Shown piece after piece: positions 8,835-59,523 of a stretch of 64,000 nt of DNA. Each line of letters opens with the position of its first letter. The first letter of the stretch is position 1. The DNA is from Heptranchias perlo (Eukaryota), in contig NW_027139242.1 of the NCBI RefSeq assembly GCF_035084215.1, positions 372,001 through 436,000 of the forward strand, written 5' to 3'. Made by a program: the position numbers and the translations under genes. The notes beneath the pieces were generated by a model, which made no database searches, was not told where the DNA came from, and worked only from the letters and a program-made list of their open reading frames with translations.

Positions 8835-10290
8835 TTTACAACACCAAGTTATAGTCCAACAATTTTATTTGAAAATCACAAGCTTTCGGAGGCTTCCTCC
8901 TTCCTCAGGTGAATGTCAAGAAATCCTCGAACCTCTCGCATTTATAAATCACAGAACAATACCTGGTGATTACAGATAGTCTTTCCAACTGCCCGTTGCC
9001 AAGGCAATCAAAGTGTTCAGTCAGAGAGGTGTCACCTGCAGAACCCCCGAATATACAAACAACCAAAAAAAAGAGGCAGAAACATAGAAACATCCGGAAG
9101 GAAGAGAAAGACAGAGAATGACCCGTTATATTAAAAACAGATAACTTTTGTTCGCTGGTGGAGTTACATGTAGCGTGACATGAACCCAAGATCCCGGTTG
9201 AGGCCGTCCTCATGGGTGCAGAACTTGGCTATCAATTTCTGCTCGACGATTTTGCGTTGTCGTGTCTCAAAGGCCGCCTTGGAGTACGCTTACCCGAAGA
9301 TCGGTGCCTGAATATCCTTGACTGCTGAAGTGTTCCCCGACTGGGAGGGAACCCTCCTGTCTGGCGATTGTTGCGCGGTGTCCGTTCATCCGTTGTCGCA
9401 GCGTCTGCATGGTCTCGCCAATGTACCATGCTCTGGGGCATCCTTTCCTGCAACATATGAGGTAGACAACGTTGGCCGAGTCACAGGAGTATGAACCATG
9501 CACCTGGTGGGTGGTGTCCTCTCGTGTGATGGTGGTATCTGTGTCGATGATCTGGCATGTCTTGCAGAGGTTACCGTGGCAGGGTTGTGTGGTGTCGTGG
9601 ACGCTGTTCTCCTGAAAGCTGGGTAATTTGCTGTGAACAAAGATCTGTTTGAGGTTGGGTGGCTGTTTAAAGGCAAGTAGTGGAGGTGTGGGGATGGCCG
9701 TAGCGAGGTGTTCGTCGTCATTGATGACATGTTGAAGGCTGCGGAGAACATGGCGTCGTTTCTCCGCTCCGGGGAAGTACTGGACGACGAAGGGTACTCT
9801 GTTGGTTGCGTCCCGTGTTAGTCTTCTGAGGAGGTCTTTCGCTGTGGCCCGTCGGAACTGTCGATCGATGAGTCGAGCGTCATATCCCGTTCTTACTAGG
9901 GCGTCTTTCAGCGTCTGTAGGTGTCCATCGCGTTCCTCCTCGTCTGAGCAGACCCTGTGTATTCGCAGGGCCTGTCCATAGGGGATGGCCTCTTTGACGT
10001 GGTTAGGGTGGAAGCTGGAAAAGTGGAGCATCATGAGGTTGTCCGTGGGCTTGCGGAAGAGTGAGGTGCTGAGGTGCCCATCTTTGATGGAGATTCGTGT
10101 GTCCGAGAAAGAAACTGATTCTGAGGAGTAGTCCATGGTGAGCTTGATGGTGGGATGGAACTTGTTGATGTTATCATGTAGTCTCTTCAGTGATTCTTCG
10201 CCGTGGGTCCATAGGAAGAAAATGTCGTCTATGTATCTGGTGTATAGCGTTGGTTGGAGGTCCTGTGCAGTGAAGAAGTCCTGCTCGAAC
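8835..10290 (-). mobile_element. Penelope-like element family 1, 5'-truncated
   Basis: RT C-terminus (YTRYIDDIF) plus GIY-YIG endonuclease (NVVYLICC...WYIGET); flanked by CTTTRTAAATAGA duplication. Confidence 0.92.
8876..8912 (-). ncRNA. Minimal hammerhead ribozyme motif in Penelope pLTR
   Basis: UCAC-CUGAGGA-A-GGAG(GAAGC)CUCC-GAAA-GCUU-GUGA. Confidence 0.72.
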
Positions 10291-10912
10291 TTTGTAAATA
10301 GAGGCATAGAATACAAAAGCAAGGAAGTTACGATGGACCTTTATAAAACATTGGCTCGGCTACAACTGGAGTATTGTGCCCAGTTCTGGGCACCACACTT
10401 TAGAAAAGATGCGAAGGCCTTAGAGAGGGTGCAGAGGAGATTTACTAGAATGGTTCCAGGGATGAGGGACTTCAGTTACATGGATAGACTGGAGAAGCTG
10501 GGGTTTTTCTCCTTAGAGCAGAGAAGGTTGCGAGGAGATTTGATCGAGGTATTCAAAATCATGAAGGGTCGAGACAGAGTAGATAGAGAGAAACGGTTCC
10601 CATTGGCGGAAGGGTCAAGAACCAGAGGACACAGATTTAAGGTGATTGGCCAAAGAACCAAAGGTGATATGAGGAAAAACATTTTTACACAGCGAGTGGT
10701 TAGGATGTGGAATGCACTGCCCGAGGGGGTGGTGGAGGCAGATTCAATCATGGCCTTCAAAAGGGAACAGGATAAGTACTTGAAGAGAAAAAATCTGCAG
10801 GGCTACGGGGAAAGGGCGGGGGAGTGGGACTAGCAGAGAGTCTTGCAGAGAGCCAGCACGGGCTCGATGGGCCAAATGGCTGCCTTCTGTGCTTAACCTT
10901 TCCATGATTCTG

Positions 10913-11615
10913 TTAGTTAGGATACGGGCAACAGAGTTTTGGATGAGCTCAAGTTTATGGAGGATGGAAGATGGGAGGCCGGCTGGGAGAGGCTAGATGT
11001 AACAAAGGCATGGTTGAGGTTTAGGCAGCAGATGAGCTGAGGCACGGGCAGAGACGGACGATGTTACGGAGGTGGAAGTCGGCGGTCTTGGTGATGGAGC
11101 GGAGATAGGGTCAGAAGCTCATCTCAGTTAAATCGGATGTTGAGGTCGCAAACAGTCTGGTTCAGCCTCAGACTGTGGCCAGGGAGAGGGATGGAGTCGG
11201 TGTCTGGGGAACGGAATTTGTGGCGGGGCTGAAGACAATGGATTTGGTCGTTCCAATATTTAATTGGAGGAAATTTCTACTCATCCAATACTGGATGTCG
11301 GACAAACAGTGTGACAAATCAGAGTGAGCGGAGGGGTTGAGAGAGGTGATGGTGAGGTAGAGCTGGGTGTCGTCTGCGTACATGATGGAACCTGACGTCA
11401 TGTTTTCGGATGATGTCGCCAAAGGGGAGCATGTAAATGAGAAATAGGAGGGGGCCAAGGATAGATCCTTGGGGGACCCCAGAGGTAACAGTGCTGGAGT
11501 GGGAAGAGAAGCCATTGCAGGTGATTCTCCGGCTACGACGAGATAGATAGGAATAGAACCAGGCGAGCACAGTCCCACCCAGCTGGACAATGGAGGAGAG
11601 GCGTTACAGGAGGAG
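10913..11615 (-). mobile_element. L2 LINE fragment, inverted relative to the adjacent L2
   Basis: [19 protein letters not shown] and YADDTQLY on the minus strand. Confidence 0.85.
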
Positions 11616-14314: not shown

Positions 14315-14838
14315 TATACCCCCACTAATTGCATTTGCCTCGGCCCAAAAATATCATTAAATATTTCTTATCACTGAAAGCAAACACAAAAATAAACTGT
14401 TCACAAATGGGTGAGTGTAGGGTCAGGGTGCAAGCGTTTATGTCCCACTCGCAAACTGGACCAAGAGGGATGGAATCAAAAAGGTGATGTGAATACAACC
14501 TGCCTTCAGGTGAATCCAGGCAGATAGAAAGGATGGTGGTGACAATTCCACAGCACTGTTCTCTCCCTGTACAGTCACATTCTGACCATTGTGTCATCGT
14601 CTTTAGGTCATAACACACAAACATTCTTTTTGGACCCACCACAACCACAGTTAACCAGCTCCAAGACAGTGACTTGTTAAAGTTACTGTTTGTGAAAACA
14701 AGTCTCTATAGAGGCTGAAAGGGAACACGGAACGTTTCTGTGTGCTGTGGGATAGTGCCTCTGATCCTCCGTCTCCATGGCGTTTGTCAGCAGGTAAGAG
14801 GAGGGCAGGGAGCACGCATGTATTGATGTCACAGCACC

Positions 14839-16308
14839 ATGGATGATGGGGTAGTCCTGAAAAAACGGGGCTACACCTTGGGCGTCAACCTGGGAGAGGG
14901 GTCCTATGCCAAAGTCAAGTCCGCCTACTCTGACCGTCTGAAGACCAATGTGGCCGTTAAAATCATTGACAGGAGGAAGGCTCCTGCTGATTTCCTGGAG
15001 AAGTTTCTACCCCGGGAACTGGAGATCTTGGCCATGCTCAATCATCGCTACATAGTCAAAACCTTTGAGATTTTCGAGACTTCCGATGGAAAGGTTTACA
15101 TTATTATGGAGCTGGGTGTTCAGGGAGATTTACTGGAATTCATTAAAACCAGGGGGGCATTGCCTGAAGAGGTATCCCGCAAGATGTTCCGCCAGCTAGC
15201 ACTGGCCGTCAAGCACTGTCACGAGCTGGATGTCGTCCATCGGGATCTCAAGTGTGAGAACCTTCTCCTGGATAAGGACTTCAATATCAAACTCTCCGAC
15301 TTTGGTTTTGCCAAACGGTGCAGTACAGATGATCAGGGGAGACCTTTGCTCAGTAAAACCTTCTGTGGCTCCGCAGCATATGCAGCCCCTGAAGTTCTAC
15401 AGGGGATCCCTTACCAGCCCAAAGTGTACGATGTTTGGAGTCTTGGGGTGATCCTTTTCATCATGGTGTGTGGATCGATGCCGTACGATGACTCAAACAT
15501 CAAAAGAATGCTCAGGATCCAGAAGGAGCACAGAGTGGATTTTCCTCGCTCAAAAGTGGTGCCTGCAGATTGCAAGGAGCTGATCTATCGTATGCTGCAC
15601 CCGGACACGACCAAACGGCTCACCATCGACGAGGTTCTGGAACATCCCTGGCTCTTCTCTGCCAAAATGAAAGAACCCCCTGCACTGAAAAAAGTGGAAC
15701 CCGGCGCAGAGAAGAGGGAAGATAAGCATGGGCACACGAAGGAAGAGAAGCACGAGGGAAAAAGTGAGCGGAAACATGACCCAAAGTACCAGTGGGAGGT
15801 GGAAGCAGGCCATGAATGGGTGGACATGAAACATGAGGCAAAGCACGAATGGATGAACATGAAACGGGACAAGGCGGACGGCAAGCACGAGGCACATACT
15901 GAGCGCAAAGAGGAGGCTAGGTCTGAGGGAAAATATGACTCCAAGGAATCAGGCTCACCTCAGTCAAGGTCTGACGATGCAAAGCACCAACCGAAAAGTG
16001 GGCTGAAAGCTGACCAAAAGAATGGAGCAAAACCAGATCCCAAGACAGGGTCAAAGCAGGAGAAGATCCCAAATCACGAAACCAAAGCTGAAATTGAGAA
16101 ACTGGAACCGAAAACGCAACAGAGCAGCAGGCGCAAATCGAGAAGCTTCAGACTAAACGACGAGGACCAGCCCGATGACAGTGAGGTCTACCCCGACCAG
16201 GAGAGCTTCATAGAAGCACAAAGCAAGGCAGAGTTGAAAAAAATTAGTTCCAAAAAGTCTAAATCTGTTGAAAAAAAGGGCAAGCATTCGAGCAAATCTC
16301 GCACCTAG
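14839..16308 (+). CDS. TSSK1/2: Intronless testis-specific serine/threonine kinase, TSSK1/TSSK2 co-ortholog, 489 aa
   Basis: [62 protein letters not shown] closely match mammalian TSSK1/2; Kozak GCACCATGG; syntenic position. Confidence 0.95.
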
Positions 16309-18985: not shown

Positions 18986-19774
18986 GTCTATTGGGCCCAG
19001 TGCCTCCACATCTTCCCCCAAAACCTTGATCCGTCTTTTCTCTTTCAGGTGCTGACTGACGCAGCATGAAGTTCCTGCGTTTACAGTTCTTATCTTTTAT
19101 TACTGAGGCACAAGTTAATTCATTACTTGACAGAGAGACGATTCGATAACAAGAAATACAACAGAATATTCTCAACCAATGTCCTGCTCCAGCAGACTGT
19201 GTACTCACTTGGTGGCTGGTGAACCTGGCCTTTATGGGTCCATTAAAAAGATGGTACAGCAAATAAACAGAGAGGAGAGGGAGGGGGTGGTAATTCAGCT
19301 CCCCATCTCCTGTCATGAAACGATACGTTGCTCAACATCCAACACAGACCCAATATCGAGCCTAGTGCAGGGGCGAGAGCAGGGCTTCTCTTACCCACAC
19401 ATACCCAACACACTCAAATAATCTTCAGTCAAGTCTTACTAAGACATCTCCAGGCCTCTGAACATCTGGGTAGAGCTCCCACCACTGCTCAGTGAGTGAG
19501 CGAGGGCTCTCCCTGGGGACAGGACCGAGTGAGGGCACTCCCTGGGGACTGAGTGCTACATTCGGAAGGTCCCAGGTCCTGGCCTAGGCCGGGCCAATCT
19601 CAGCTGCTTGGCAGCTGGGGAATTGCGATGAGCCTCTGCACCCCAAATGCTGCTGGGGGTAGGGAAGGGGTGTGGGGGTGAAAAGGTTTCTCTGCTGATT
19701 CAGTTTCCAGCGATTCCTGGTACAAACTGTGCATGAACACTGGGAGAGGACGGGAAGACCAGGCTCATGGACTA

Positions 19775-20532
19775 AACCCCAGTCAGGGTCAGGGCCTGTG
19801 CCACTGAACCCCAGTGAGGGTCAGGGCCTGTGCCACTGAACCCCAGTGAGGGTCAGGGTCTGTGCCACTGAACCCCAGTGAGGGTCAGGGTCTGTGCCAC
19901 TGAACCCCAGTGAGGGTCAGGGTCTGTGCCACTGAACCCCAGTGAGGGTCAGGGTCTGTGCCACTGAACCCCAGTGAGGGTCAGGGCCTGTGCCACTGAA
20001 CCACAGTGAGGGTCAGGGCCTGTGCCACTGAACCCCAGTGAGGGTCAGGGCCTGTGCCACTGAACCCCAGTGAGGGTCAGGGTCTGTGCCACTGAACCCC
20101 AGTGAGGGTCAGGGCCTGTGCCACTGAACCCCAGTGAGGGTCAGGGCCTGTGCCACTGAACCCCAGTGAGGGTCAGGGCCTGTGCCACTGAACCCCAGTG
20201 AGGGTCAGGGCCTGTGCCACTGAACCCCAGTGAGGGTCAGGGTCTGTGCCACTGAACCCCAGTGAGGGTCAGGGCCTGTGCCACTGAACCCCAGTGAGGG
20301 TCAGGGCCTGTGCCACTGAACCCCAGTGAGGGTCAGGGTCTGTGCCACTGAACCCCAGTGAGGGTCAGGGCCTGTGCCACTGAACCCCAGTGAGGGTCAG
20401 GGTCTGTGCCACTGAACCCCAGTGAGGGTCAGGGTCTGTGCCACTGAACCCCAGTGAGGGTCAGGGTCTGTGCCACTGAACCCCAGTGAGGGTCAGGGCC
20501 TGTGCCACTGAACCCCAGTGAGGGTCTGGGCC
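19775..20532. repeat. 32-bp minisatellite (GAACCCCAGTGAGGGTCAGGGYCTGTGCCACT)
   Basis: About 23 near-identical tandem copies between TSSK and ESS2. Confidence 0.97.
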
Positions 20533-20995
20533 TTCAGAAGAGATCAGGAGAGAAAGCAAACCAGACTTTACCATATTTACATATTAAAACCACCCAGCCC
20601 AGCACTCAGAACTAAAGCCCCAATTTAATACAGATGTGATGCTGTCTCCTCCATGTGAAAGGGTCAGAGGTTAATGTTGAACAGATGAGAAGGGGGTTGG
20701 TTTGGAGCTAACGGGAGGTGAGCCAACACTGAAAAGATTAGAAAGAAATGGAAATATTTCCCCCGGAGTTCTGGGGGAAAGGCTTCAAACATTTGCTTCA
20801 TGGTGACTGCTGTTATACCGCAAGCAGCGTCAGGCGATGCCTTGTTATCTCGCATGGCCTGGTAATGTGCAGTTTAACAAGTCCGTGACTGAACTCAGAC
20901 AAACCCCACACAATGTCACACAAGAGATTTACAAGTAGTGTCGGGGATGGAGCAGAAATCAGCGGAAAAGTCCAGCCTTCACCCAAAGAGGCCAG

Positions 20996-21001
20996 TTTAT
21001 T
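20996..21001 (-). terminator. Likely ESS2 polyadenylation signal
   Basis: AATAAA on the minus strand about 300 nt after the ESS2 stop. Confidence 0.55.
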
Positions 21002-21149
21002 GAATGAGAAGAATCGGTGGGAGGGGCAGGTGAATGTCGACCGGTGTACAGATGGAATCGTCCTTCATTCTTAAACATCCCCATTATCAGTCCAGCAAAT
21101 ATCAGTTGGTTTCCAATTCCTCTTGGTCACTTTGGGGAAACAAAGGAGA

Positions 21150-21283
21150 GCGCGGCCCGAGCTCGGAGAGACGCGGCCCGAGCTCGGAGAGACGCGGCCC
21201 GAGCTCGGAGAGACGCGGCCCGAGCTCGGAGAGACGCGGCCCGAGCTCGGAGAGACGCGGCCCGAGCTCGGAGAGACGCGGCC
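21150..21283. repeat. 21-bp CpG-rich tandem repeat in the ESS2 3'UTR
   Basis: (CGCGGCCCGAGCTCGGAGAGA) about 6 copies. Confidence 0.95.
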
Positions 21284-21297
21284 CCTCATGTCCAGCA

Positions 21298-21568
21298 CTA
21301 GAAGAAGTCGGCTGCTTTCTTTCTCTTGGGCAGCTGCAGCAGGTTATCAGTGATGGAGGTGGGGTCCTGGCTGTTCGGGGTGTGGGTACTAGTGGGTACC
21401 TTAGGGGTCCCGTCAGCAGCTGGTGTCTTGCACCGTGGTGTTCCTTTGTGTGCCGGGGAGGGCGTGTAACTGGCGCGTAAAGCTTTGTCCGTATACTTGC
21501 TGGAAGTCCGGTTAACAAGTCGCTGCAGAGCTGGCGACATCACAGGGCTGATTCCGTGCGGAGAGAGG
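21298..21568 (-). CDS. ESS2: ESS2 exon 10 (last coding exon)
   Basis: MSPALQRLV...[13 protein letters not shown]...[19 protein letters not shown]; acceptor ttcacag, phase 2. Confidence 0.95.
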
Positions 21569-21717
21569 CTGTGAACGAGGAGAAAGCAACAGAAATAAAT
21601 CAACGGTGAACAGACCAGCCCCCCCTCACTCACCAAGGCCAAAATAACATTTGTCCTCTCAGAAACAAATCCCCGTGAACCAGTGATTCCACGAATAAAA
21701 CCGCACAGAGTTTACAT

Positions 21718-22143
21718 CCCTCCCCCCACACTCCCCGTCCCTCCCCCACACTCCCCGTCCCTCCCCCACACTCCCCGTCCCTCCCCCACACTCCCCGTCC
21801 CTCCCCCACACTCCCCGTCCCTCCCCCACACTCCCCGTCCCTCCCCCACACTCCCCGTCCCTCCCCCACACTCCCCGTCCCTCCCCCACACTCCCCGTCC
21901 CTCCCCCACACTCCCCGTCCCTCCCCCACACTCCCCGTCCCTCCCCCACACTCCCCGTCCCTCCCCCTCCCCCCCCCAACCACTCCCTCCCCCTCCCCCC
22001 CCCAACCACTCCCTCCCCCTCCCCCCCCCAACCACTCCCTCCCCCTCCCCCCCCCAACCACTCCCTCCCCCTCCCCCCCCCAACCACTCCCTCCCCCTCC
22101 CCCCCCCAACCACTCCCTCCCCCTCCCCCCCCCAACCACTCCC
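21718..22143. repeat. Two adjacent C-rich minisatellites (20 bp, then about 29 bp) in ESS2 intron 9
   Basis: (CTCCCCCACACTCCCCGTCC)n followed by (CCCTCCCCCTCCCCCCCCCAACCACT)n. Confidence 0.93.
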
Positions 22144-22410
22144 TTTTCAGGGGCCGGGCAGTGAAGGGAAGGAGAGAAAGGGACCGAAACGCTCCAAGGC
22201 AAATTTCAATTCCTCACTCGACTGCCATCAACCAGTAAGAGCAAGTTGGGGCCCTCACTGCAGCCTGCAACTCACTTCAAGCCCGGCCCGGCCCGGCCCC
22301 TCACACGGCCCGGCCTCCAGGCAAACAGAAGCGGTGAGCCGACACACCGAGCCCTGGAGCAGGACACCACCTGTCTCTGTGCAGACTCAAACTCCAGTGC
22401 CTGCACTCAC

Positions 22411-22526
22411 CTGACCAGACTCTCTGTGGCCTTCCGCAAGGCCTCCTGCTTCTTGGTTCTATTCTTGGCAGCGACCTCATTGACCATTTTTAGCCCCAAC
22501 CTCTCTCTCCGGCCTGGTTCCAGAAT
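22411..22526 (-). CDS. ESS2: ESS2 exon 9
   Basis: ILEPGRRERLGLKMVNEVAAKNRTKKQEALRKATESLV; 116 nt; ag/gtgagt boundaries. Confidence 0.95.
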
Positions 22527-22944
22527 CTGTGGCAAAGGGATCACATATCAAGGATTAGAAGCAAATCAGGTGGATTTCTTAAACCACATACTTCACTCTT
22601 TCCGCAGAGATCGGCGCCCCCCCGAGATGATGGAGTAGAGATCCTCGGGCACGGCTGCCTCTGTATAACACCCAAGTGCCAACTCTTTGTTTGCAAATCG
22701 AGGCTTTAAATGTTGCTTCAATCACAGGGCGTGGGGAGGGGATCACAGGCCAGCCCTCACTCACCACCAATCAGACACATCCAACTTGGGGAAACGGAGG
22801 ACGATGTCAGCATCCTCCCCCTGTCCCCGTCGCTAATTCAGGGCAGAGGGGCCGGCTGGAACAATCCAACTACAATCTGATATTTCATATCTCTCCCAAA
22901 CCCCAACAACACAGCACTGACCACAGTGTGTAACGGGGACAAGA

Positions 22945-23095
22945 GCGAGGGCGAGGGCAGGCCGCGGGCGGCCAACGGGCGAGGGGAGGCCGCGGGCGGC
23001 CAACGGGCGAGGGCGAGCGGAGGCCGCGGGCGGCCAACGGGCGAGGGCGAGCGGAGGCCGCGGGCGGCCAACGGGCGAGGGCGAGCGGAGGCCGC
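22945..23095. repeat. GC-rich tandem repeat, about 31-bp unit
   Basis: GGGCGAGGGCGAGCGGAGGCCGCGGGCGGCCAAC units. Confidence 0.85.
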
Positions 23096-23144
23096 ATGTG
23101 TTGATCTGTGAAACGATTGAGGAAAGGGATGAAGAGTTCGCCTT

Positions 23145-26790: not shown

Positions 26791-26840
26791 GTAATGAGGT
26801 CTGGACCTCTTGTGTCTCCGCGCCCTAGCCTAGCCTGTAC

Positions 26841-26950
26841 CTTAAACGCTGGTCCAGGCGTCCTGTCCACGTGAGGAGTTTCTGAGCTGTCCACACGGAA
26901 TGGAGTACCTTCGATTTCACCCCACGTCATCAATGGGGACTCGTGCACAC
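26841..26950 (-). CDS. ESS2: ESS2 exon 8
   Basis: VHESPLMTWGEIEGTPFRVDSSETPHVDRTPGPAFK; 110 nt. Confidence 0.95.
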
Positions 26951-27244
26951 CTGCAAGGAAACAAGCTCCTGTCAATAACCTTGGGACTGATCCCAGGATA
27001 CAAACCACTTCTACAAGTAGTTTAGATCAGGAGTACATTTTCAAAAAGGTAACCAGAGGTTGTAAGCTTAACATTCAACCAATGGTTGGTCACCATAACC
27101 ATGGACAACACTATCACGCGCACAAGTCCCGCTGGTCTACGGTCCGGCGGGCGCCGAGTCCCGCTGGCCTACGGTCCGGCGGGCGCCGAGTCCCGCTGGC
27201 CTACGGTCCGGCGGGTATAGGGTCCTTCTAGGGTACAGTCCTAT

Positions 27245-28310: not shown

Positions 28311-28374
28311 AGTACAGTCCGACGGGTAACGAGTCCTGTTGGCATATAGTTCGAAGTTGTGTGTTGCTCTCCTG

Positions 28375-31697: not shown

Positions 31698-31728
31698 TGT
31701 TTGGGTGGGCGGTGCCTGCTCTCTGTAC

Positions 31729-40714: not shown

Positions 40715-40734
40715 AGCAGTTCCATGTCTTCGGT

Positions 40735-44870: not shown

Positions 44871-44907
44871 TCACAAGCTTTCGGAGGCTTTCTCCTTCGT
44901 CAGGTGA
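44871..44907 (-). ncRNA. Minimal hammerhead ribozyme motif
   Basis: UCAC-CUGACGA-A-GGAG(AAAGC)CUCC-GAAA-GCUU-GUGA. Confidence 0.78.
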
Positions 44908-47000
44908 GTGTGGGATTCGGATTCCATGGAAGGTTACCGCATTTATAGTCAGAGAACAATACCTGGTGATTACAGATAATCTTTCCAACTGCCCGTTGTC
45001 AAGGCAATCAAAGTGTTCAGACAGAGTGATGTTACCTACAGGACCACCGAATACACAAACGGCCAGAACAAAAGACAGAGAGAGAAACATCCGAAAGGAA
45101 GAGAAAGACAGAGAATGACCCGTTGTATTAAAAACAGATAACTTTTGTTCGCTGGTGGGGTTACGCGTAGCGTGACATGAACCCAAGATCCCGGTTGAGG
45201 CCGTCCTCATGGGTGCGGAACTTGGCTATCAATTTCTGCTCGACGATTTTGCGTTGTCATGTGTCTCGAAGGCCGCCTTGGAGAACGCTTACCCGAAGAT
45301 CGGTGGCTGAATGTCCTTGACTGCTGAAGTGTTCCCCGACTGGGAGGGAACCCTCCTGTCTGGCAATTGTTGCGCGGTGTCCGTTCATCTGTTGTCGCAG
45401 TGTCTGCATCGTCTCGCCAATGTACCATGCTCCGGGGCATCCTTTCCTGCAATGTATGAGGTAGACAACGTTGGCCGAGTCACAGGAGTATGAACCATGT
45501 ACCTGGTGGGTGGTGTCCTCTCGTGTGATGGTGGTATCTGTGTCGATGATCTGGCATGTCTTGCAGAGGTTGCCGTGACAGGGTTGTGTGGTGTCGTGGA
45601 CGCTGTTCTCCTGAAAGCTGGGTAATTTGCTGCGAACGATGGTCTGTTTGAGGTTGGGTGGCTGTTTAAGGGCGAGTAGTGCAGGTGTGGGGATGGCCAT
45701 AGCGAGGTGTTCGTCATCATCGATGACATGTTGAAGGCTGCGGAGAACATGGCGTAGTTTCTCCGCTCCGGGGAAGTACTGGACGACGAAGGGTACTCTG
45801 TTGGTTGCGTCCCGTGTTAGTCTTCTGAGGAGGTCTATGCGATTTTTCGCTGTGGCCCGTCGGAACTGTCGATCGATGAGTCGAGCGTCATATCCCGTTC
45901 TTACTAGGGCGTCTTTCAGCGTCTGTAGGTGTCCATCGCGTTCCTCCTCGTCTGAGCAGACCCTGTGTATTCGCAGGGCCTGTCCATAGGGGATGGCCTC
46001 TTTGACATGGTTAGGGTGGGAGCTGGAAAAATGGAGCATTGTGAGGTTGTCCGTGGGCTTGCGGTAGAGTGAGGTGCTGAGGTGCCCGTCTTTGATGGGA
46101 GATTCGTGTGTCCAAGAATGAAACCGATTCTGAGGAGTAGTCCATGGTGAGCTTGATGGTGGGATGGAACTTGTTGATGTTATCGTGTAGTCTCTTCAGT
46201 GATTCCTCGCCGTGGGTCCATAGGAAGAAAATGTCGTTGATGTATCTGGTGTATAGCGTTGGTTGGAGGTCCTGTGCAGTGAAGAAGTCCTGCTCGAACT
46301 TGTGCATGAAAATGTTGGCGTATTGGGGTGCGAATTTGGTCCCCATGGCTGTTCCGTGTGTTTGGGTAAAGAACTGGTTGTCGAAGGTGAAGACATTGTG
46401 ATCCAGGATGAAGCGGATGAGTTGTAGGATGGCGTCTGGGGATTGGCTGTTGTTGGTGTTGAGTACTGATGCTGTTGCAGCGATGCCGTCATCGTGGGGG
46501 ATACTGGTGTAGAGTGCCGAGACGTCCATCGTGGTGAGAAGTGTTCCTGGTTCAACTGGTCCGTGGGTGCTGAGTTTTTGTAGGAAGTCTGTAGTGTCGC
46601 GACAGAAGCTGGGAGTTCCCTGTACGATGGGTTTCAGGATGCCCTCGACGTATCCAGAGAGGTTCTCACACAGGGTTCCATTGCCTGATACGATAGGACG
46701 TCCGGGTGTGTTGGCTTTGTGTATCTTAAGGAGGCAGTAGAAGTCTCCCACGCGGGGAGTACATGGGATGAGAGCACGGAGAATGCTTTGAAGGTCTGGA
46801 TCGCAGGTCTTGATCAGTTTGTTGAGCTGGTGGGTGTGTTCCTTGGTCGGATCTGCGGGTAACCGTCTGTAGTGTTCCTGGTTGTCCAGTTGTTGGTATG
46901 CTTCTTTGCAATAGTCCGTTCTGTTCTGTATGATTCTGTCACCAGGTATTGTTCTCTGACTATAAATGCGGTAACCTTCCATGGAATCTGAATCCCACAC

Positions 47001-47037
47001 TCACCTGACGAAGGAGAAAGCCTCCGAAAGCTTGTGA
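47001..47037 (+). ncRNA. Minimal hammerhead ribozyme motif (inverted pLTR copy)
   Basis: TCACCTGACGAAGGAGAAAGCCTCCGAAAGCTTGTGA. Confidence 0.78.
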
Positions 47038-48210
47038 TTTTAAAATAAAACAGTTGGACTATAACCTGGTGTTGTAAGATTCCTTACATTATTCTTTTAG
47101 TCATTCTTGTTTTTTATATTCTGTCCAATCTTCTGACCTGCCACTAATCTTCATGGAATTGCATGCTTTTTCTTTCAATTTGATACTATGAATGGGAGGA
47201 CCCTAGGCAAGACAGAGGGTCAGAGGGATCTTGGTGTGCAAGTTCACAGATCCCTGACGGCGGCGGAACAGGTCGATAAGGTGGTAAAGAAGGCATATGG
47301 GATACTTGCCTTTATTAGCCGAGGCATAGAATATAAGAGCAAGGAGGTTATGATGGAGCTGTATAAAACACTGGTTAGGCCACAGCTGGAGTACTGTGTG
47401 CAGTTCTGGTCGCCACACTGCAGGAAGGATGTGATCGCTTTGGAGAGGGTGCAGAGGAGATTCACCAGGATGTTACCAGGGCTGGAGCGCTTCAGCTATG
47501 AAGAGAGACTGGGAAGATTGGGTTTGTTTTCCTTGGAGCAGAGGAGGCTGAGGGGGGACATGATTGAGGTGTACAAAATTATGAGGGGCACAGATAGGAT
47601 GGATACTAAGGAGCTTTTTCCCTTCATTGAGGGTTCTATAACAAGGGGACATAGATTCAAGGTAAAAGGCGGGAGGTTTAGAGGGGATTTGAGAAAGAAC
47701 TTTTTCACCCAGAGGGTGGTTGGAGTCTGGAACTCACTGCCTGAAAGGGTTGTGGAGGCAGGAACCCTCACAACATTCAAGAAGCATTTGGATGAGCACT
47801 TGAAATGCCATAGCATACAAGGCTACGGACCAAATGCTGGAATATGGGATTAGAGTAGACAGGGCTTGATGGTCGGCGCGGACACGATGGGCCGAAGGAC
47901 CTCTCTCCGTGCTGTATGACTCTATGACTCTCTATGACTATCTTTAACTTCCTTAGTTACCCACGGATGGCCTGTCCTTCCCCTGGAGTCTTTCTTTCTC
48001 ACTGGAATGTATCCAGTGATGTGATTGAATGGCGGAGCAGGCTCGAGGGGGCGTATGACCTACTCCTGCTCCTATTTCTTATGTTCTTATGAGTGAGGGG
48101 TCAGCAGTGGGGGTTGGGAGTGAGGAGACAGGAGGGAGGGGTCAGGGTTGAGTGGAGGGGTCAGGGTTCCCCCAGTTTTCCCTAGGCTCCACACTGCCCA
48201 TGATCCCTAC

Positions 48211-48446
48211 CTCCACTCTCTCCTCCTGTAGATGCACTTGTTCGGCCAGCTGCTCTCGGCTCTCCACATCTGGGTATTGATTGAGCCGGAAGTGCTGCTC
48301 GAGAGTCGCCAGCTGGTCCTCACTGAAGATAGTTCGATGTCGCCGTGTCCGCTTGTGGAGCTGATGAGAAAGGTGCAGCTCTGCCCCCGGCCCAGGTACC
48401 TGCAAGAGAGGAGGGGCCAGTGCCCGGACCCAGTGAGAGTCACACG
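48211..48446 (-). CDS. GSC2: GSC2 exon 2 (homeodomain helices 1-2); acceptor position uncertain
   Basis: [57 protein letters not shown]|gtaggg; phase-1 acceptor gaccag at 48447 chosen to fit exon 1. Confidence 0.85.
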
Positions 48447-51400: not shown

Positions 51401-54270
51401 AGGAGGAAAGCTGTCGACTGCAGGAAGATATCAATGGACTGGTCAGGTGGGCAGAAAAGTGGCAAATGGAATTCAATCCGGAGAAGTGTGAGGTAATGCA
51501 TTTGAGGAGGGCAAACAAGGCAAGGGAGTACACAATAAATGGGAGGATACTGAGAGGTGTAGAGGAACAGAGGGACCTTGGAGTGCATAGCCACAGATCC
51601 CTGAAGGTAGCAGGACAGGTAGATAAGGTGGTTAAGAAGGCATTTGGAATACTTTCCTTTATTAGCCAAGGCATAGAATAGAAGAACAGGGAGGTTATGC
51701 TAGAACTGTATAAAACATTAGTTAGGGCACAGCTAGAGTACTGCGTACAGTTCTGGTCACCACATTACAGGAAAGATGTGTTTGCACTCGAGAGGGTACA
51801 GAGGAGATTTACGAGGATGTTGTCAGGGCTGGAGAATTTTAGCTATGAGAAAAGATTGGATAGGCTGGGGTTGTTTACTTAGGAACAGAGGAGGTTGAGG
51901 GGTGATTTAATTGAAGTATATAAAATTATGAGGGACCTAGATAGAGTGGATAGGGAGGACCTATTTCCCTTAGCAGAGGGGTCAGTAACGAGGGGGAATA
52001 AATTTAAAGTAATTGGTCGAAGGATTCGAGGGGAGTCGAGGAGAAATGTTTTCACCCAGAGGGTGGCGTGTGGAACTCACTGCTTGAAGGGTGGGAGAGG
52101 CAGAAACCCTCAACTCATTTAAAAAGTACCTGGATGTGCACTTGAAGTGCTGTAACCTACAGGGCTACGGACCAAGTGCTGGAAAGTGGGATTAAGCAGG
52201 ATAGCTCTTTTTTAGCCGGCACGGACACGATGGGCCGAATGGCCTCCAGTGCTGTAACTTTCTATGATTTGTCTATCTTTAGTCTCATTATTTTCCCCAT
52301 TACCATTTTTTAAACTTATATTAAGTATTAACCCCTTGATTTATTTTTAGTTTTCCTCGAATTGCTGGTATTTTACCCTCATTCTCTACTGTGAAGACCG
52401 ATACAAAGTAATTATTTAGCAAGTCTGTCATTTCCCGATTTCCAATTACAATATCACCTGTGTCTGTCTTTAAGAGGCCCACATTACTCTTAGCCACCTT
52501 TGTTCTCTTAATATACTTGTGAAAACCTTTAGTCTTGTCCTTGTCCTTCACAAACTTTTTCTCATATTCCCTTTTTGCAGCTCTTACCACTTTCTTTGTA
52601 TCCCTTTGCTGTTCTTTATATCTCTCCCAGTCTGTGGAATCTCTACTGTTCTTTGCATTTGTATAAACCCTTTCTTTTAGTTTTATTCGATCTCTCACTT
52701 CCCGAGTTGACCACGGTTGTTTGATGACACAAGTAGAGCTCTTGCTCTTTATGCGTATGTACAGGTTTTATAATCTATCAAATACTTATTTGAACACCTC
52801 CCACTGTTCATCCGTAGTTTTATCTGTTAATAGTTCTGCTCAGTTAACTGTGGTCAATTTCTGCCTCATCCCTTCAAAGTCAGCCTTACCCAAATTTGAA
52901 ACCTTGGTTTGTGACTCACCCTCTCCCTCTCAAACCTAATATCAACATTGCTGCAGGAGTTCCTCAGGGCAGTGTCCTAGGCCCAACCATCTTCAGCTGC
53001 TTCATCAATGACCTTCCCTCCATCATAAGGTCAGAAATGGGGATGTTTGCTGATGATTGCAGTGTTCAGTTCCATTCGCAACCCCTCAGATAATGAAGCA
53101 GTCCGAGCCCGCATGCAGCAAGACCTGGACAACATCCAGGCTTGGGCTGATAAGTGGCAAATAACATTCGCGCCAGATAAGTGCCAGGCAATGACCATCT
53201 CCAACAAATGTAAGGAGTCTTACAACACCAGGTTATAGTCCAACTGTTGGACTATAACCTGGTGTTGTAAGACTCCTTACATTTGTCCACCCCAGTCCAT
53301 CACCGGCATCTCCACATCATCTCCAACAGAGAGAGTCTAACCACCTCCCCCTGCCATTCAACGGCATTACCATCGCCGAATCCCCCACCATCAACATCCT
53401 GGAGGTCACCATTGACCAGAAACTTAACTGGACCAGCCATATAAATACTGTGGCTACAAGAGCAGGTCAGAGGCTGGGTATTCTGCGGCGAGTGACTCAC
53501 CTTCTGACTCCCCAAAGCCTTTCCACCATCTACAAGGCACAAGTCAGGAGTGTGATGGAATACTCTCCACTTGCCTGGATGAGTGCAGCTCCAACAACAT
53601 TCAAGAAGCTCGACACCATCCAGGACAAAACAGCCCGCTTGATTGGCACCCCATCCACTACCCTAAACATTCACTCCCTTCACCACCGGCGCACAGTGGC
53701 TGCAGTGTGTACCATCCACAGGATGCACTGCAGCAACTCGCCAAGGCTTCTTCGACAGCACCTCCCAAATCTGCGACCTCTACCACCTAGAAGGACAAGG
53801 GCAGCAGGCACATGGGAACAACACCACCTGCACGTTCCCCTCCAAGTCACACACCATCCTGACTTGGAAATATATCGCCGTTCCTTCATCGTCGCTGGGT
53901 CAAAATCCTAGAACTCCCTTCCTAACAGCACTGTGGGAGAACCGTCACCACACGGACTGCAGCGGTTCAAGAAGGCGGCTCACCACCACCTTCTCAAGGG
54001 CAATTAGGGATGGGCAATAAATGCCAGCCTTGCCAGCGACGCCCACATCCCATGAACGAATAAAAAAAAAAGAACTCGATCGTATTATGGTCACTGTTAG
54101 CGATGTGTTCCCTTATTATCCTGTTAGATTATTGACTAATTCTGGCTTATTACTCAACAATAAATCTAATTTAGAATGATGGAATGATACAGGACATCGT
54201 GCCTACGTCCTCTTCTTAGTTCAAGAACATATTGTTGCAGAAAACTGTCTCTAATACATTCAATAACTTT
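48500..54270. mobile_element. Nested CR1 cluster (family C - 49642-50760; CR1+ 51040-52270) with LINE family B + 52940-54072
   Basis: Multiple RT ORFs and CR1 tails; family B ends in AATAAAAAAAAA at about 54070. Confidence 0.85.
53204..53320 (+). mobile_element. Ultra-short Penelope family 1 remnant forming a perfect hairpin
   Basis: 41-bp arms 53204-53244 and 53246-53286, Penelope tail to 53320, duplication CATCTCCAACA. Confidence 0.9.
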
Positions 54271-54564
54271 GTTACAGGAATGGCCAGCTGCCCATTGGTG
54301 CACTGACTGGGGCTGAGGACAACGGCTTCTAGACACTTGAACAGATGGTCCAATGAGCAATGTGTCCATCAGGAACGGCTGAATTTCCAGTCAGTCCACT
54401 TGAATTGACCAACCCTTTCAGCTAAGGTTTAGTTGTGAATGAATTTGTTTGGTGTGTGAGTGCTCCACCTCATGTGGTACAGGTGAGAGGGTCCATGATC
54501 AAACCCAGACCGTGCTGAGCCCAGCCGAGACTGGAACTTGTCCTCAGTGCCCTCCAGTTAGGGA

Positions 54565-54910
54565 GGCAAGAAACAAAGGTCAGCCGGGGGTGGGCGGGGC
54601 AAGAAACAAAGGTCAGCCGGGGGTGGGCGGGGCAAGAAACAAAGGTCAGCCGGGGGTGGGCGGGGCAAGAAACAAAGGTCAGCTGGGGGTGGGCGGGGCA
54701 AGAAACAAAGGTCAGCCGGGGTGGGCGGGGCATGAAACAAAGGTCAGCCGGGGTGGGCGGGGCATGAAACAAAGGTCAGCCGGGGGTGGGCGGGGCATGA
54801 AACAAAGGTCAGCCGGGGTGGGCGGGGCAAGAAACAAAGGTCAGCTGGGGGTGGGCGGGGCATGAAACAAAGGTCAGCCGGGGTGGGCGGGGCAAGAAAC
54901 AAAGGTCAGT
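54565..54910. repeat. Minisatellite of about 32-33 bp (GAAACAAAGGTCAGCCGGGGGTGGGCGGGGCAA)
   Basis: About 10 tandem copies, each with a GC box and an AGGTCA half-site. Confidence 0.93.
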
Positions 54911-55214
54911 CAGGGTTCCTGCTCGGGATCATGAGGCAGAAAATCTTGCTGGAAATAGGGCTGTGGACACGAGATGAGTGCACCCCGAGGGTGAACAGCC
55001 CACCTGCACCGGGGATGCAGTAATGTGTGGCGGCTGTCAGGATCAGTGATTGCCCAACAGACCCCATCGCCCAGCACAGATAGGGAATCAATCAATGGAC
55101 AGGATCAGTGAGGGTGCTCGCACTGAGAGCTCCTCTCCCTGGATCGCTGGGGTAGACCCTCCCGTTCTCTCCTCAGGATACCGACTCTCGATGGACCTCG
55201 TTCAACAGACACCG

Positions 55215-55587
55215 GTCCCTGCCCCACCCTGTCCCCCCACACAGCCCTGCCCCGCCCTGTCCCCCCACACAGCCCTGCCCCACCCTGTCCCCACACACAG
55301 CCCTGCCCCACCCTGTCCCCACACACGGGCCGTGTGTGTGGACAGGGTGGGGCAGGGCTGTGTGTGAGGGCGGGGCAGGGCTGTGTGTGAGGACAGGGCG
55401 GGGCAGGGCTGTGTGTGGGGACAGGGTGGGGCAGGGCTGTGTGGGGGGACAGGGCGGGGCAGGGCTGTGTGTGGGGACAGGGTGGGGCAGGGCTGTGTGG
55501 GGGGACAGGGTGGGGCAGGGCTGTGTGGGGGGACAGGGTGGGGCAGGGCTGTGTGGGGGGACAGGGTGGGGCAGGGCTGTGTGTGTG
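55215..55587. repeat. Minisatellite of about 29 bp that switches strand at about 55330
   Basis: CCCTGCCCCACCCTGTCCCCCCACACAG units followed by their reverse complement. Confidence 0.9.
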
Positions 55588-55602
55588 AGCCTGAACGGTA
55601 AA

Positions 55603-55830
55603 TCAAAAGCAAAATACTGCGGACGCTGGAAATCTGAAATAAAAACAGAAAATGCTGGAAATACTCAGCAAGTCAGGCAACGTCTGTAGAGAAAGAAACA
55701 GAGTTAATGTTTCAGGTCGATGACCTTTCGTCAGAACTGGAAAAAGTAAAGATTTAACAGTTTTTAAGCAAGTACAGAGTCGGGGAAAAGGAGGGGGGAG
55801 GAAAGAACTAAAGGGATAATGATGCAAGAA
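55603..55830 (-). mobile_element. Penelope family 2 3' end (continuation of 60565-61030)
   Basis: Matches the 3'UTR of the 27245-28310 copy. Confidence 0.78.
55702..55738 (-). ncRNA. Minimal hammerhead ribozyme motif, family 2
   Basis: AGUU-CUGACGA-A-AGGUC(AUC)GACCU-GAAA-CAUU-AACU. Confidence 0.7.
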
Positions 55831-58800
55831 AATAACATAAGAAATAGCAGCAGGAGTAGGCCACATGGCCCCTCGAGCCTGCTCCGCACGGCCCCTCGAG
55901 CCGGCTCCACCATTCAATCAGATCTTCGACCTCAACTCCACTTTCCTGCCTGATCCCCATATCCCTTGATTCCCTTAGTGTCCAAAAATCTCAGTCTTGA
56001 ATATACTCAATGACTGAGCATCCACAGCCCTCTGGGGTAGAGAATTCCAAAGATTCACAACCCTCTGAGTGAAGAAATTTTTCCTCATCTCGGTCCTAAA
56101 TGTCCGACCCCTTATCCTGAGACTATGCCTCCTAGTTCTAGACTCTCCAGCCAGGGGAAACAATCTCTCAGCATCTACCCTGTCAAGCCCCCTCAGAATC
56201 TTATTCATTTCAATGAGATCACCTCTCATTCTTCTAAACTCCAGAGAGTATAGGGCCATTCTACTCAATCTCTCCTCATAGGATAATCCTCTCATCCCAG
56301 GAATCAATCTAGTGAACCTTTGTTGCACCCCTCAAAGGCAAGTATATCCTTCCTTAGATAAGGAGACCAAAACTGTACACAGTACTCCAGGTGAGGTCTC
56401 ACCAGAGCCCCATATAATTGCAGCAAGACTTCCTTACTCTTGTACTCCAACCCCCTTGCAATAAAGGCCAACTTACCATTTGCTTTCCTAATTGCTTGCT
56501 GTACCTGCATGTTAACTTTCTGCATTTCGTGTACAAGGATACCCAAATCTCTCTGAACACCAACATTTCTTAGTCTCACCTTTTAAAAAATATTCTGCTT
56601 TTCTATTCTTCCTACGAATTGTGTCCTGTACACCCAAGTCCAAGTTATCAAAAAAAGTAATGATCCCAGTACCCTGGGGAACACCACTGTACACCTCCCT
56701 CTGGTCCAAAAAACAACCATTCACCACGACTCCCTGTTTCCTGTCACTTAGCCAATTTCATATCCATGCTGCCACTGTCCCTTTTATTCCATGGGCTTCA
56801 ACTTTGCTGACAAGCCTATTATGTGGCACTTTATCAAACGCCTTTTGAAAGTCCATATACACAACATCAACCGCGTTCCCCTCATCAACCCTCTCTGTTA
56901 CCTCATCAAAAAATTCAATCAAGTTAGTTAAACAGCTGGCTTTCCTTTATTAATCCACACTTGTCCAAGTGACTTTTAATTTTCTCCCGGATTATTGTTT
57001 CCAAAAGTTTCCCCACCGCTGAGGTTAAACTGACTGACCTATAGTTGCTGGGTTTATCCTTACACCTTTTTTGAACAAAGGTGTAACATTTGCAATTCTC
57101 CAGTCCTCTGGCACCCCCTGTATCTAAGGAGGATTAGAAGATTATGGCCAGTACCTCCGCAATTTCCACCCTTACTTCCCTCAGCAACCTAGGATGCATC
57201 TAGGAACATAGGAACAGGAGTAGGCCATTCAGCCCCTCGTGCCTGCTCCGCCATTTGATAAGATCATGGCTGATCTGTGATCTAACTCCATATACCTGCC
57301 TGTGGCCCATATCCCTTAATACCTTTGGCTGCCAAAAAGCTATCTATCTCAGATTTAAATTTAGCAATTGAGCTCGTATCAATTGCCGTTTGCGGAAGAG
57401 AGTTCCAAACTTCTACAACCCTTTGTGTGTAGAAATGTTTTCTAATCTCGCTCCTGAAAGGTCTGGCTCTAATTTTTAGACTGTGCCCCCTGCTCCTAAA
57501 ATCCCCAACCAGCGGAAATAGTTTCTCTCTATCCACCCTATCTGTTCCCCGTAATATCTTTTAAACTTTGATCAGATCACCCCTTAACCTTCTAAACTCT
57601 AGAGAATACAACCCCAATTTGTGTAATCTCTCCTCGTAACTTAACCCTTGAAGTCCGGACCGAGTGACTTATCTACTTTAAGTACAGCTAACCTAGCAAC
57701 TCCTCTTTATCAATTTTTAGCCCATCCTGTATCTCAACCGACTCCTCTTTTACTGTGACTCTGGCAGCATCTTCTTCCTTGGTAAAGACAGATGCAAAAT
57801 ACCCATTTAGTACCTCAGACAAGCCCTCTGCCTCCATGAGTAGATCTCTTTTTTGGTCCCTAATCGTATCCACCCCTCCTCTTACTACTCATTTACTGTT
57901 TACATGCCTGTAGAAGACTTTTGGATTCCCTTTTATATTTCCTGCCAGTCTATTCTCATACTCTCTCTTTGCCCCTCTTATTTCCTTTTTCACTTCCCCT
58001 CTGAACTTTCTATATTCTGCCTGGTTCTCACTTGTGTTATCAACCTGACATCTGTCATATGCCCCTTTTTCTGCTTCCTCTTACCCTCTGTCTGTTTTGT
58101 CATTCAGGGAGCTCTGGCTTTGGTTGCCCTACTTTGCCCCCTCGTGGGAATGTACCTAGACTGTACCTGAACCATCTCCTCTTTAAAGGCTGCCCATTAT
58201 TCGATTACAGTTTTGCCTGCCGATCTTTGATTCCAATTTACCCGGGCCAGATCCGTTCTCAACCCATCAAAATTGGCCCTCCTCCAATTAAGTATTTTAA
58301 CTCTAGATTGCTCCTTGTCCTTTTCCACAGCTAATCTAAACCTTATGATACCACGACCACTGTACCCTAAATGCTCCCCCACTGACACTTGCTCCACTTG
58401 ACCCACCTCATTCCCCAGAACCAGATCCAGCAATGGCTCCTTCCTCATTGGGCCGGAAACATGCTGATCAAGAAAGTTCTCTCCTTCTTTGCCCTTTACA
58501 CTATTACTGTCCCAGTCGATATTAGGATAGTTGAAGTCCCCAGTTATTACTGCTCTATAATTCTTACACCTCTGTAATTTCCCTGCAAATTTGCCCCTCT
58601 ATATCTTTCCTACCAGTTGGTGGCCTATAGGATACACCCAGTAGTGTAATGGCACATTTGTTGTTTCTTAACTCTAACCAAATAGATTCTGCCCTTGACC
58701 CCTCCAGGACATCCCCCCTCTCCAGTACTGCAATATTCTCCTTAATCAATACTGCAACCCCCCTTCCTTTTTTTCCTTCCCTATCTTTCCTGAACACCTT

Positions 58801-59102
58801 GTATCCAGGAATATTTAGTACCCAATCCTGCCCTTTTTTGAGCCAGGTCCCTGCTATCATCACAACATCATATTCCCATGTGGCTATTTGCACCTGCAGC
58901 TCACCAACCTTATTTACCACGCTTTGTACGTTTACACACACGCACTGTAAACCTATCTTCGACCTTCTCGTACTCTCTCTTAGTCTGATCCCACCTAATA
59001 CTGCACTATTTCTTACTCTAGTGCTATCTATCTCTCCCAATCGTTTATGCACCTTGTTTCTCCTTTCTAATGCTAATTTTAATGTAATACTATCCTTAAC
59101 TT

Positions 59103-59523
59103 AAGTTCCGCACCCATGAGGACGGCCTCAACCGGGATCTTGGGTTCATGTCACGCTACACGTAACCCCACCAGCAAAAAGGGGGAAAAAAAAGTTATGT
59201 TTTTAATATTCTCTCTATCTCTCTGCCATTTGGGTTTCTTTCTGTCTGTCTATGTAATTGACACAATGTATATCCAGTGTACTGGGACGTGCTGTTCTCC
59301 GTGACTGGCCTGTTTGAATAACAACGACACCTTTTGATTGGTGTGATGCTGTCCCAGCATAGTATAAGATATGCGATTTGAGAACCTTTCACTCATTCAC
59401 CTGACGAAGGGGATAATCTCCGAAAGCTTGTGATTTTAAAATAAAATTGTTGGACTATAACCTGGTGTTGTAAGATTCCTTACATTTGTCCACCCCAGTC
59501 CATCACCGGCATCTCCACATCAT
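59103..59523 (+). mobile_element. Penelope family 1 3' fragment (variant 3'UTR) with pLTR end and tail
   Basis: Ends GTAAGATTCCTTACATTTGTCCACCCCAGTCCATCACCGGCATCTCCACATCAT; TAACTT on both sides. Confidence 0.85.
59397..59433 (+). ncRNA. Minimal hammerhead ribozyme motif with variant stem II
   Basis: UCAC-CUGACGA-A-GGGGA(UAA)UCUCC-GAAA-GCUU-GUGA. Confidence 0.75.

Follow-up and report, generated by a model that had tools for sequence, protein, structure and literature searches.

Five hammerhead motifs at a GSC2-like locus

We analysed a 64,000-nucleotide stretch of DNA from the shark Heptranchias perlo (contig NW_027139242.1, positions 372,001 to 436,000; G000:C1075:372001-436000), hereafter the window, which carries a GSC2-like homeobox gene and five copies of a minimal hammerhead ribozyme motif. 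A preliminary description of the same letters had assigned the motifs to two families of Penelope-like elements (PLEs) and regarded them as the processing ribozymes of these lineages. Genome-wide counts refer to the 3.25-Gb assembly. The genes and motifs of the window are as follows.

4642, reverse strand: DGCR2-like first exon
14827-16308, forward strand: intronless kinase (TSSK-like), downstream of the ESS2-like stop and on the opposite strand to ESS2
21300-38100, reverse strand: ESS2 (Pfam Es2 exons; last coding exon ends near 21,300)
40800-63700, reverse strand: GSC2-like gene, extent
About 63,300-48,400, reverse strand: GSC2-like intron 1
48211-48399, reverse strand: GSC2-like homeobox exon 2 (Pfam Homeodomain, E 7.3e-14)
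48,210-40,822, reverse strand: GSC2-like intron 2
Beginning at 40,821, reverse strand: GSC2-like exon 3
8876-8912, reverse strand: family-1 minimal hammerhead, predicted cut after CUU at 8880
44871-44907, reverse strand: family-1 minimal hammerhead, sense, in GSC2-like intron 2, predicted cut after 44875
47001-47037, forward strand: family-1 minimal hammerhead in an inverted arm, antisense to the GSC2-like gene
55702-55738, reverse strand: family-2 minimal hammerhead with a broken palindrome (ACAU for ACGU), sense, in GSC2-like intron 1
59397-59433, forward strand: family-1 minimal hammerhead of the ATAAT-loop subfamily, antisense, in GSC2-like intron 1

The names GSC2-like, TSSK-like and DGCR2-like follow what we take to be the synteny of this region; Es2 alone is Pfam-based. 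Introns of the GSC2-like gene house four of the five motifs, those at 44871 and 55702 in sense and those at 47001 and 59397 in antisense orientation, while the motif at 8876 lies about 12 kb past the ESS2-like stop codon. The order of exon 2 (48,399-48,211) and exon 3 (from 40,821) on the reverse strand bears out the earlier statement that the 44871 and 55702 copies are sense to the GSC2 pre-mRNA.

Both strands of the window were scanned for CUGANGA, stem II, GAAA, UH and stem I. This core-plus-stems scan returned exactly five matches, all at the coordinates of the preliminary description and none elsewhere, and 100 dinucleotide shuffles of the window gave a mean of 0.1 matches under a loose rule and 0 under a strict rule. 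Each motif spans 37 nt and consists of CUGANGA, one extra A, a stem II of 4-5 bp, GAAA, two letters, UU and a 4-bp stem I; the extra nucleotide, between A9 and 10.1, is present in all five. RNAfold recovered stems I and II for each 37-mer, with weak z-scores (-0.65 to -1.58). None of the 10 window matches in Rfam (all families, E<=1) is a hammerhead, and the Rfam miRNA matches are hairpins of simple or fold-back repeats. A hammerhead search, proposed earlier as a check, therefore yields five motifs by pattern and none by Rfam, and given this blank and the weak fold z-scores the case rests on core letters, context and covariation.

The motifs lie in Penelope-like insertions

The context of the motifs was provided by insertions bearing a reverse transcriptase (RT), a GIY-YIG endonuclease-like domain or a pseudo-long terminal repeat (pLTR), some of them with a target-site duplication (TSD) or an open reading frame (ORF).

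8833-10292, reverse strand: 5'-truncated family-1 insertion with RT end, GIY-YIG-like domain and pLTR, no tail and no inverted arm; matches the 44.8-46.3 kb copy at 93%
9267-10340: ORF of the 8833-10292 insertion
44777-46938, reverse strand: long arm of a family-1 insertion, with a 5'-truncated, frameshifted RT and GIY-YIG ORF (RVT_1, E 9.4e-9), pLTR and tail
44942-44947, reverse strand: TATAAA box, putative promoter, 73 nt upstream of the predicted cut
46939-47087, forward strand: short inverted arm of the 44777-47087 insertion, about 150 nt, 99% complementary, no tail
53204-53320, no strand assigned: family-1 fold-back mini-insertion with an 11-bp TSD and no ribozyme motif, beginning downstream of the hammerhead; absent from the preliminary description
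55634-55850, reverse strand: family-2 pLTR fragment with no ORF attached, ends approximate
59103-59523, forward strand: solo family-1 arm with last ORF codons, pLTR and tail
27328-28317, forward strand: family-2 fragment with GIY-YIG-like ORF and a pLTR whose hammerhead core is deleted

The tail of the 44777-46938 arm ends at the ORF start codon (44782-44780), and a 14-bp TSD (44763-44776 and 47088-47101) brackets the whole 44777-47087 unit. The complete architecture is seen in a full-length family-1 copy elsewhere in the genome (L121), which comprises a TATA box, the hammerhead, 92 nt, an AUG and an 890-codon RT and GIY-YIG frame with one internal stop. A second, identical module follows in direct orientation, placing the two motifs 3,063 nt apart. 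Genome-wide, 1,249 places match the family-1 tail-to-ORF junction within two mismatches. Together with L121, these matches indicate that a cis partner motif exists in master copies; none of the window copies has one. Assembled RNA contigs from four runs over L121:3902-6889 had no piled ends and no supported splice joint, although contigs cannot show ends.

The family-1 RT was matched by RVT_1 in Pfam, whereas Pfam gave no GIY-YIG match in the family-1 ORF, and the domain was recognised by eye from the motif VVYLI..YIGET. For family 2 the protein evidence is the C-terminal end: at other loci its pLTR follows a GIY-YIG-like frame, about 35% identical to that of family 1 over some 100 residues. 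Both families carry a CX4-5CxxC linker (CHGNLCKTC in family 1, CERRRCNTC in family 2). According to the available text of one survey, a CX2-5CxxC linker between RT and endonuclease is a mark of Neptune and Nematis, and the Penelope/Poseidon clade is without it (PMC8557442). Both families thus differ from Penelope/Poseidon and have the linker expected of Neptune, yet the same linker is common to Nematis.

The family-1 pattern has 50,480 exact matches genome-wide (control 0), or one per 64 kb. The ACGU pattern of family 2 has 8,340 (control 205), and among the first 100 matches listed nearly all are family 2. The 8,908 matches to the ACAU pattern are mostly an unrelated repeat; by hand count, 35 of the first 100 listed are family-2 copies, about one third as many as the ACGU copies on the same part of contig C1. 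This share would fit CpG decay after insertion. Ten of 30 ORF-start copies (L201-L230) are open over all 506 codons examined, which argues that family 1 is young. Other hammerhead-like cores with a different stem II were seen at G000:C1:22374253-22374337, 4918286 and 6978610 and in L066, one of them as a head-to-head pair; these probably belong to older PLE families.

Core, stems and palindrome are conserved

Across 16 recurrent family-1 variants, 97.2% of stem cells are paired and three of the nine pairs change on both sides. The covariation score, tested in family 1, exceeds those of 500 out of 500 shuffles and of all slid controls, but is inflated by the variants being related subfamilies. 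The stem covariation across genome-wide copies, on which the preliminary description had made its claim depend, is therefore present in family 1. Its statement that stem II changes while pairing is kept holds within a family only for the fifth pair, which is G-C at 8876 and A-U at 59397. The change from GGAG to GGGG is one-sided, and AGGUC/GACCU comes from the second family, whose pLTR blastn did not match to that of family 1.

A palindrome in place of stem III had been described as a feature of family 1. Family 1 does have AGCU, present in four window copies and retained in 229 of 231 family-1-type cores; however, the feature is not specific to it, since family 2 typically has ACGU, of which the ACAU at 55702 is a non-palindromic variant. 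The extra A after A9 occurs in 263 of 266 cores, a spacing that the search pattern had fixed. A G10.1-C11.1 pair is found in 228 of 231 family-1 cores, whereas the corresponding pair in family 2 is A-U in 25 and G-U in 7 of 35 rows, a set that includes five misfiled family-1 variants. A U closes the cut triplet in nearly all copies, with only 307 non-U. Taken together, the core letters, the ties to RT and GIY-YIG ORFs and the family-1 covariation uphold the assignment proposed at the outset: as judged from sequence, each of the five is a minimal type I hammerhead carried by the pLTR of one of two Penelope-like families.

Insertions run past the predicted cut site

RNA that was cut before serving as template would leave cDNA ends between CUU and GUG. 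We measured 5' ends in 100 tail-anchored arms, anchored downstream of the cut and taken from the first 9 Mb of contig C1. Ninety of these extend across the cut site and 35 begin at -25 to -45. None begins at the cut itself, the nearest ends falling at -4 and +10. None of 30 ORF-start copies begins at the cut. In both sets, values below about -600 mark the end of the reference, and a few deep values, for example at L115, L135, L153 and L217, arise artefactually from references that are inverted. Across the genome, 141 places are compatible with a start at the cut site, some of them deletions or helix-I microhomology junctions. A control pattern placed +4 from the cut has 1,013 matches, mostly an indel variant, for which only a hand count was used (about 30 true ends among the first 100 matches listed). 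Against this hand-counted control, the 141 places represent no excess of ends at the cut. The absence of a cleavage mark from the genome-wide 5' ends suggests that the copied RNA was likely uncut.

The ends that do occur are concentrated a short distance upstream. Among 299 arms with intact cut context, end density was 5.0 per nt at -25 to -49 compared with 0.3 at -50 to -149, and 89 of 170 ends in another set fell at -25 to -49. Both sets are anchored on the intact cut context and cannot test ends at the cut; the 299-arm set includes non-random loci and leaves out L231-L270. In family 2 (L061-L090), a TTAAAAA/TCAAAAA box lies about 25 nt before helix I, and by eye about 8 of 29 copies, in a sample picked for an intact motif, begin at the helix I edge.

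Nearly all long family-1 copies examined have a TATA box 65-77 nt upstream of the cut. One lineage has the box at -75/-76; its ends are most frequent at -45/-46, and many of them fall on the A of TCATTT. This peak follows the box by 29-30 nt, the spacing of an RNA polymerase II start. Ends at -42 to -49 make up 25 of 91 in long-spacer copies compared with 0 of 16 in short-spacer copies (box at -65 to -68; p 0.02). Transcription signals inside the pLTR have precedents in the available texts on Drosophila Penelope, with a start site inside the pLTR (PMC2377424), and on a rotifer PLE, with TATA plus initiator (PMC3846280).

Head-to-head arms point to two priming events

The fetched family-1 loci contain 119 inverted pairs. 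The 35-nt tail is confined to a single arm in 108 of them, and 91 are flanked by a duplication of at least 10 bp (12 bp in 45, 13 bp in 22). As far as the available texts describe it, the PLE signature comprises a pLTR, an adjacent inverted 5'-truncated copy, a 30-40 bp tail and a TSD (PMC3846280, PMC8557442). Family 1 has the unit structure of endonuclease-bearing (EN+) PLEs in the direct pLTRs of L121, in the 119 pairs and in the window unit 44777-47087. It resembles these canonical units in every structural element, including the TATA plus initiator-like pLTR signal.

Most arm pairs are nearly identical, with a median difference of about 2% over 61 pairs; private letters common to both arms were seen in L003, L013 and L023. 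Two of 59 readable pairs, however, combine arms of different subfamilies within one duplication:

L117:1520-2340 (G000:C1, about 3.869 Mb): mixed pair, ATAAT versus AAAGC loop, one 12-bp TSD
L119:1520-1658 (G000:C1, about 4.023 Mb): mixed pair, ATAAT versus AAAGC loop, one 12-bp TSD

The EN+ PLE literature, in its available parts, favours self-priming or endonuclease resolution as the origin of the inverted arm and tail (PMC3846280, PMC8557442). Unlike this view, the 108 one-tail pairs and the two mixed pairs point to two priming events. If common, mixed arms within one TSD would show that two RNAs take part in each insertion event, and we tentatively raise a model of this kind, although we consider it improbable as it stands. 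The palindromic helix III would pair two element RNAs in a dimeric RT-endonuclease particle, the hammerhead would form the cap-proximal head of the mRNA, and cleavage in trans would uncap the RNAs after copying. With its own RNA as template, each subunit might then prime one of the target strands, so that the arms come to lie head to head. A predicted dimer of the anole PLE protein (PMC11167929) would fit two RNAs per event, which would bring two hammerheads together in trans; gene conversion or a mixed tandem transcript could equally give mixed-subfamily arms. If the model were true, a PLE hammerhead that acts only as a dimer would have a job without a tandem repeat.

The window copies are likely inert passengers

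In the available text of the study that described them, single minimal hammerheads from PLEs are inactive in vitro and dimers cut weakly (PMC4209133); by analogy, the motifs studied here would also require a dimer. Of nine Xenopus dimers, one cut, according to the part available of a recent preprint (bioRxiv 10.64898/2026.07.22.740005). Cofolding two motifs gave -19.0 kcal/mol for the unconstrained dimer compared with -14.3 for a double-hammerhead-like form, so that the active dimer is not favoured by folding alone. In the both-strand scan of the window, no copy has a compatible partner motif on the same strand. The 44871 motif would be transcribed after its own complement, the upstream inverted arm, with which a 148-bp duplex of -279 kcal/mol is predicted. 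The 55702 motif is predicted to be unable to form the dimer helix (self-pairing +2.8 versus -4.9 kcal/mol). The window motifs are therefore likely inert where they lie, as far as these models go. As stated, the view of the five copies as processing ribozymes finds no support: all of them are truncated and lack partners, one has decayed, another is predicted to be clamped, and the 5' ends genome-wide lack the mark of cleavage.

We consider it probable that the motifs cut only when paired, are inert in place and were copied from uncut RNA that began just upstream of the motif. In the mechanism that we propose, a TATA/initiator-like signal would start the RNA about 2-13 nt before helix I, so that the hammerhead heads the transcript. 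The element protein would cut both target strands about 12 nt apart and prime cDNA on each end, a chemistry suggested by the anole element (PMC11167929). One priming point would lie at the AUG, which forms the tail end, and the other about 35 nt upstream. Two primings of this kind could produce the DNA pattern observed, head-to-head arms with exactly one tail inside one TSD. The cDNAs would continue past the predicted cut and in many cases terminate where the hammerhead begins on its 5' side, as is seen in the copies. Cleavage would require a second hammerhead, pairing through AGCU or ACGU and probably helped by protein, and may occur late or on the side, withdrawing RNA from the pool of templates by uncapping or unit release, rather than being a step that makes templates. 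The copies in the GSC2-like introns would be passengers, and the genome would fill with inert motif-bearing fragments.

Besides the relatedness of the variants and the nature of the +4 control given above, several points weigh against this reading. Three of the five stem II pairs never vary among the 16 family-1 variants, the samples come mostly from the first 9 Mb of contig C1, and junction microhomology moves apparent ends by a few bases. An intact cut site is also what a template re-ligated into a circle would carry. The AAAGC subfamily, which is represented in the window, has its TATA box at -73 in 42 of 57 long copies, but its ends are most frequent at -33, on the first base of helix I, with 0 of 22 ends at -42 to -49; a structural stop at helix I therefore fits as well as a start site. 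Cap run-off and stalling at helix I may both act.

The best surviving alternative is classical processing, in which two hammerheads 3 kb apart in a tandem transcript excise a unit RNA that is ligated to a circle, reverse transcription round the circle then giving more-than-unit copies (proposed in the available text of PMC4209133). L121, with its two direct motifs, is longer than one unit, several of the 30 ORF-start copies reach hundreds of bases upstream into the previous unit, and core, stems and palindrome are conserved across subfamilies. Read-through tandem transcripts, however, account equally for the long copies. Re-ligation into a circle would explain the lack of ends at the cut, but a circle has no end at all and leaves the pile-up at -25 to -49 unaccounted for unless the RT stalls there, and linear cut intermediates have left no visible excess. 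In addition, hammerhead mutants left insertion of the anole element unchanged in vitro (PMC11167929). We regard classical processing as unlikely.

Still less probable, in our view, is that the motif is kept mainly as a structural signal, either an RT-stopping fold or an RNA-pairing palindrome, and that its cleavage is negligible or vestigial. The peak at -33 stands at the helix I base in several subfamilies whatever the distance to the TATA box, and the near-constant U of the cut triplet and the scarcity of G10.1-C11.1 in family 2 can be counted on the same side, as can Naiad PLEs, which thrive without hammerheads according to the available text of PMC8557442. A plain hairpin, however, would not need the CUGA-GA and GAAA-U letters, which are the same in two families with otherwise unmatched pLTRs; this identity is partly circular, as the search patterns required those letters. 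The anole homologue, moreover, does cut (PMC11167929).

A cutting or mis-splicing effect of the sense copies on the GSC2-like pre-mRNA, which the preliminary description had hinted at and which would make them host regulators, was rejected as very improbable: the sense placement of the two copies and a branch-point-like, pyrimidine-rich stretch ending in CAG just past the family-2 motif are set against the lack of a same-strand partner for either copy, the predicted clamping of 44871 and the lost palindrome of 55702, the antisense orientation of two of the four intronic copies, a genome-wide density at which intronic copies are expected by chance, and the 99-100% identity of the 44871 region to at least 40 dispersed copies, which marks a young insertion. 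The predicted clamp on 44871 itself makes a host role unlikely, and when taken with the predicted failure of 55702 to dimerise and the inactivity of single minimal hammerheads (PMC4209133, in its available text) it would make any effect on the host transcript unlikely.

Relation to known hammerheads and elements

Minimal hammerheads in metazoan PLE pLTRs were described in 2014 by Cervera and de la Pena (PMC4209133). The ribozyme class is therefore known, and what the window adds is more copies of it in dead insertions, an ordinary finding in itself. As far as the available text of that study goes, the motifs share with its ribozymes the type I topology, a 4-bp helix I, the extra nucleotide after A9, a palindromic 15.1-16.1 as sole helix III, the family-1 G10.1-C11.1 pair, the pLTR location and the occurrence mostly as single dispersed copies. 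They differ in a helix II of 4-5 bp compared with 7-8 in schistosome families, and in the A-U or G-U pair of family 2, although G10.1-C11.1 is common rather than obligatory in PLE hammerheads. The roughly 59,000 pattern matches found here compare with about 4,000 in coelacanth and about 9,000 in Xenopus; the same text, in its available part, names no cartilaginous fish.

The closest experimental parallel is the Poseidon element PAc of Anolis carolinensis (Frangieh et al., 2024; PMC11167929). Cleavage by its hammerhead requires protein, mutating the hammerhead leaves insertion unchanged, no RNA-seq ends fall at the cut, and uncut RNA was shown to serve as template in vitro. As proposed here for family 1, PAc begins reverse transcription at two sites, about 35 nt apart, whose spacing defines the tail; it uses both target strands and an uncut template, and carries the hammerhead just upstream of the start sites. 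The PAc ORF starts inside stem II, whereas the family-1 AUG lies 92 nt after the cut.

Animal non-LTR retrozymes likewise have a type I hammerhead in short repeats derived from PLE pLTRs (PMC7229834, available text), and one chondrichthyan in the sample of the preprint cited above has retrozymes, as stated in its available part (bioRxiv 10.64898/2026.07.22.740005). Retrozymes form head-to-tail tandems, however, whereas the short copies here are solo or head-to-head. The window scan found no head-to-tail hammerhead tandem units, and the 310 intact cores in the fetched loci include 20 same-strand neighbours at irregular distances of 185-3,959 nt and no equal-unit array; membership among the retrozymes was therefore rejected.

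In the open full-text literature (a scope outside which lie subscription journals, Repbase and supplements), we found neither a paper on PLE hammerheads of sharks nor one on a pile-up of 5' ends at the motif. The role of the PLE hammerhead is called unclear in the available text of PMC8557442. More than 50,000 young copies that record RT start and stop points offer a test bed for this role, and subfamilies that differ in the TATA-to-hammerhead distance would make it possible to tell start-site, structural-stop and circular-template models apart through counts and cap-mapping.

Further observations in the window

In RNA, the arms of the 44777-47087 unit would pair over 148 bp and enclose a 2-kb loop within the GSC2-like intron, and the many such inverted pairs genome-wide could be sources of double-stranded RNA. 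A hairpin 35-55 nt after the cut (44818-44840, reverse strand, and homologues) keeps its pairing between lineages (UGUAAG/CUUACA versus UGUAAA/UUUACA), and the inner insertion end sits at its 3' base. A pseudoknot considered for the family-1 tail (44790-44860, reverse strand), with GGACU/AGUCC crossing CUGGUG/CACCGG, has no two-sided change and is not claimed.

In the family-2 pLTR at 55680-55710 (reverse strand), a UUAAC that resembles a branch point overlaps helix I and is accompanied by a pyrimidine tract and a CAG, after which ATG usually comes; a second tract at about 55650-55670 (reverse strand) ends in UUUCAG. These splice-like signals, sense in GSC2-like intron 1, could represent a pLTR intron or a cryptic acceptor.

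Dense minisatellite arrays with periods of 13-69 occupy 1700-7500, 19600-22100, 28400-31400, 34100-35100, 39700-40800, 54500-55600 and 60900-63250. Many RT fragments in these stretches are, we presume, CR1/L2-like, and the minisatellites and RT fragments of the window yield spurious long ORFs and miRNA matches.

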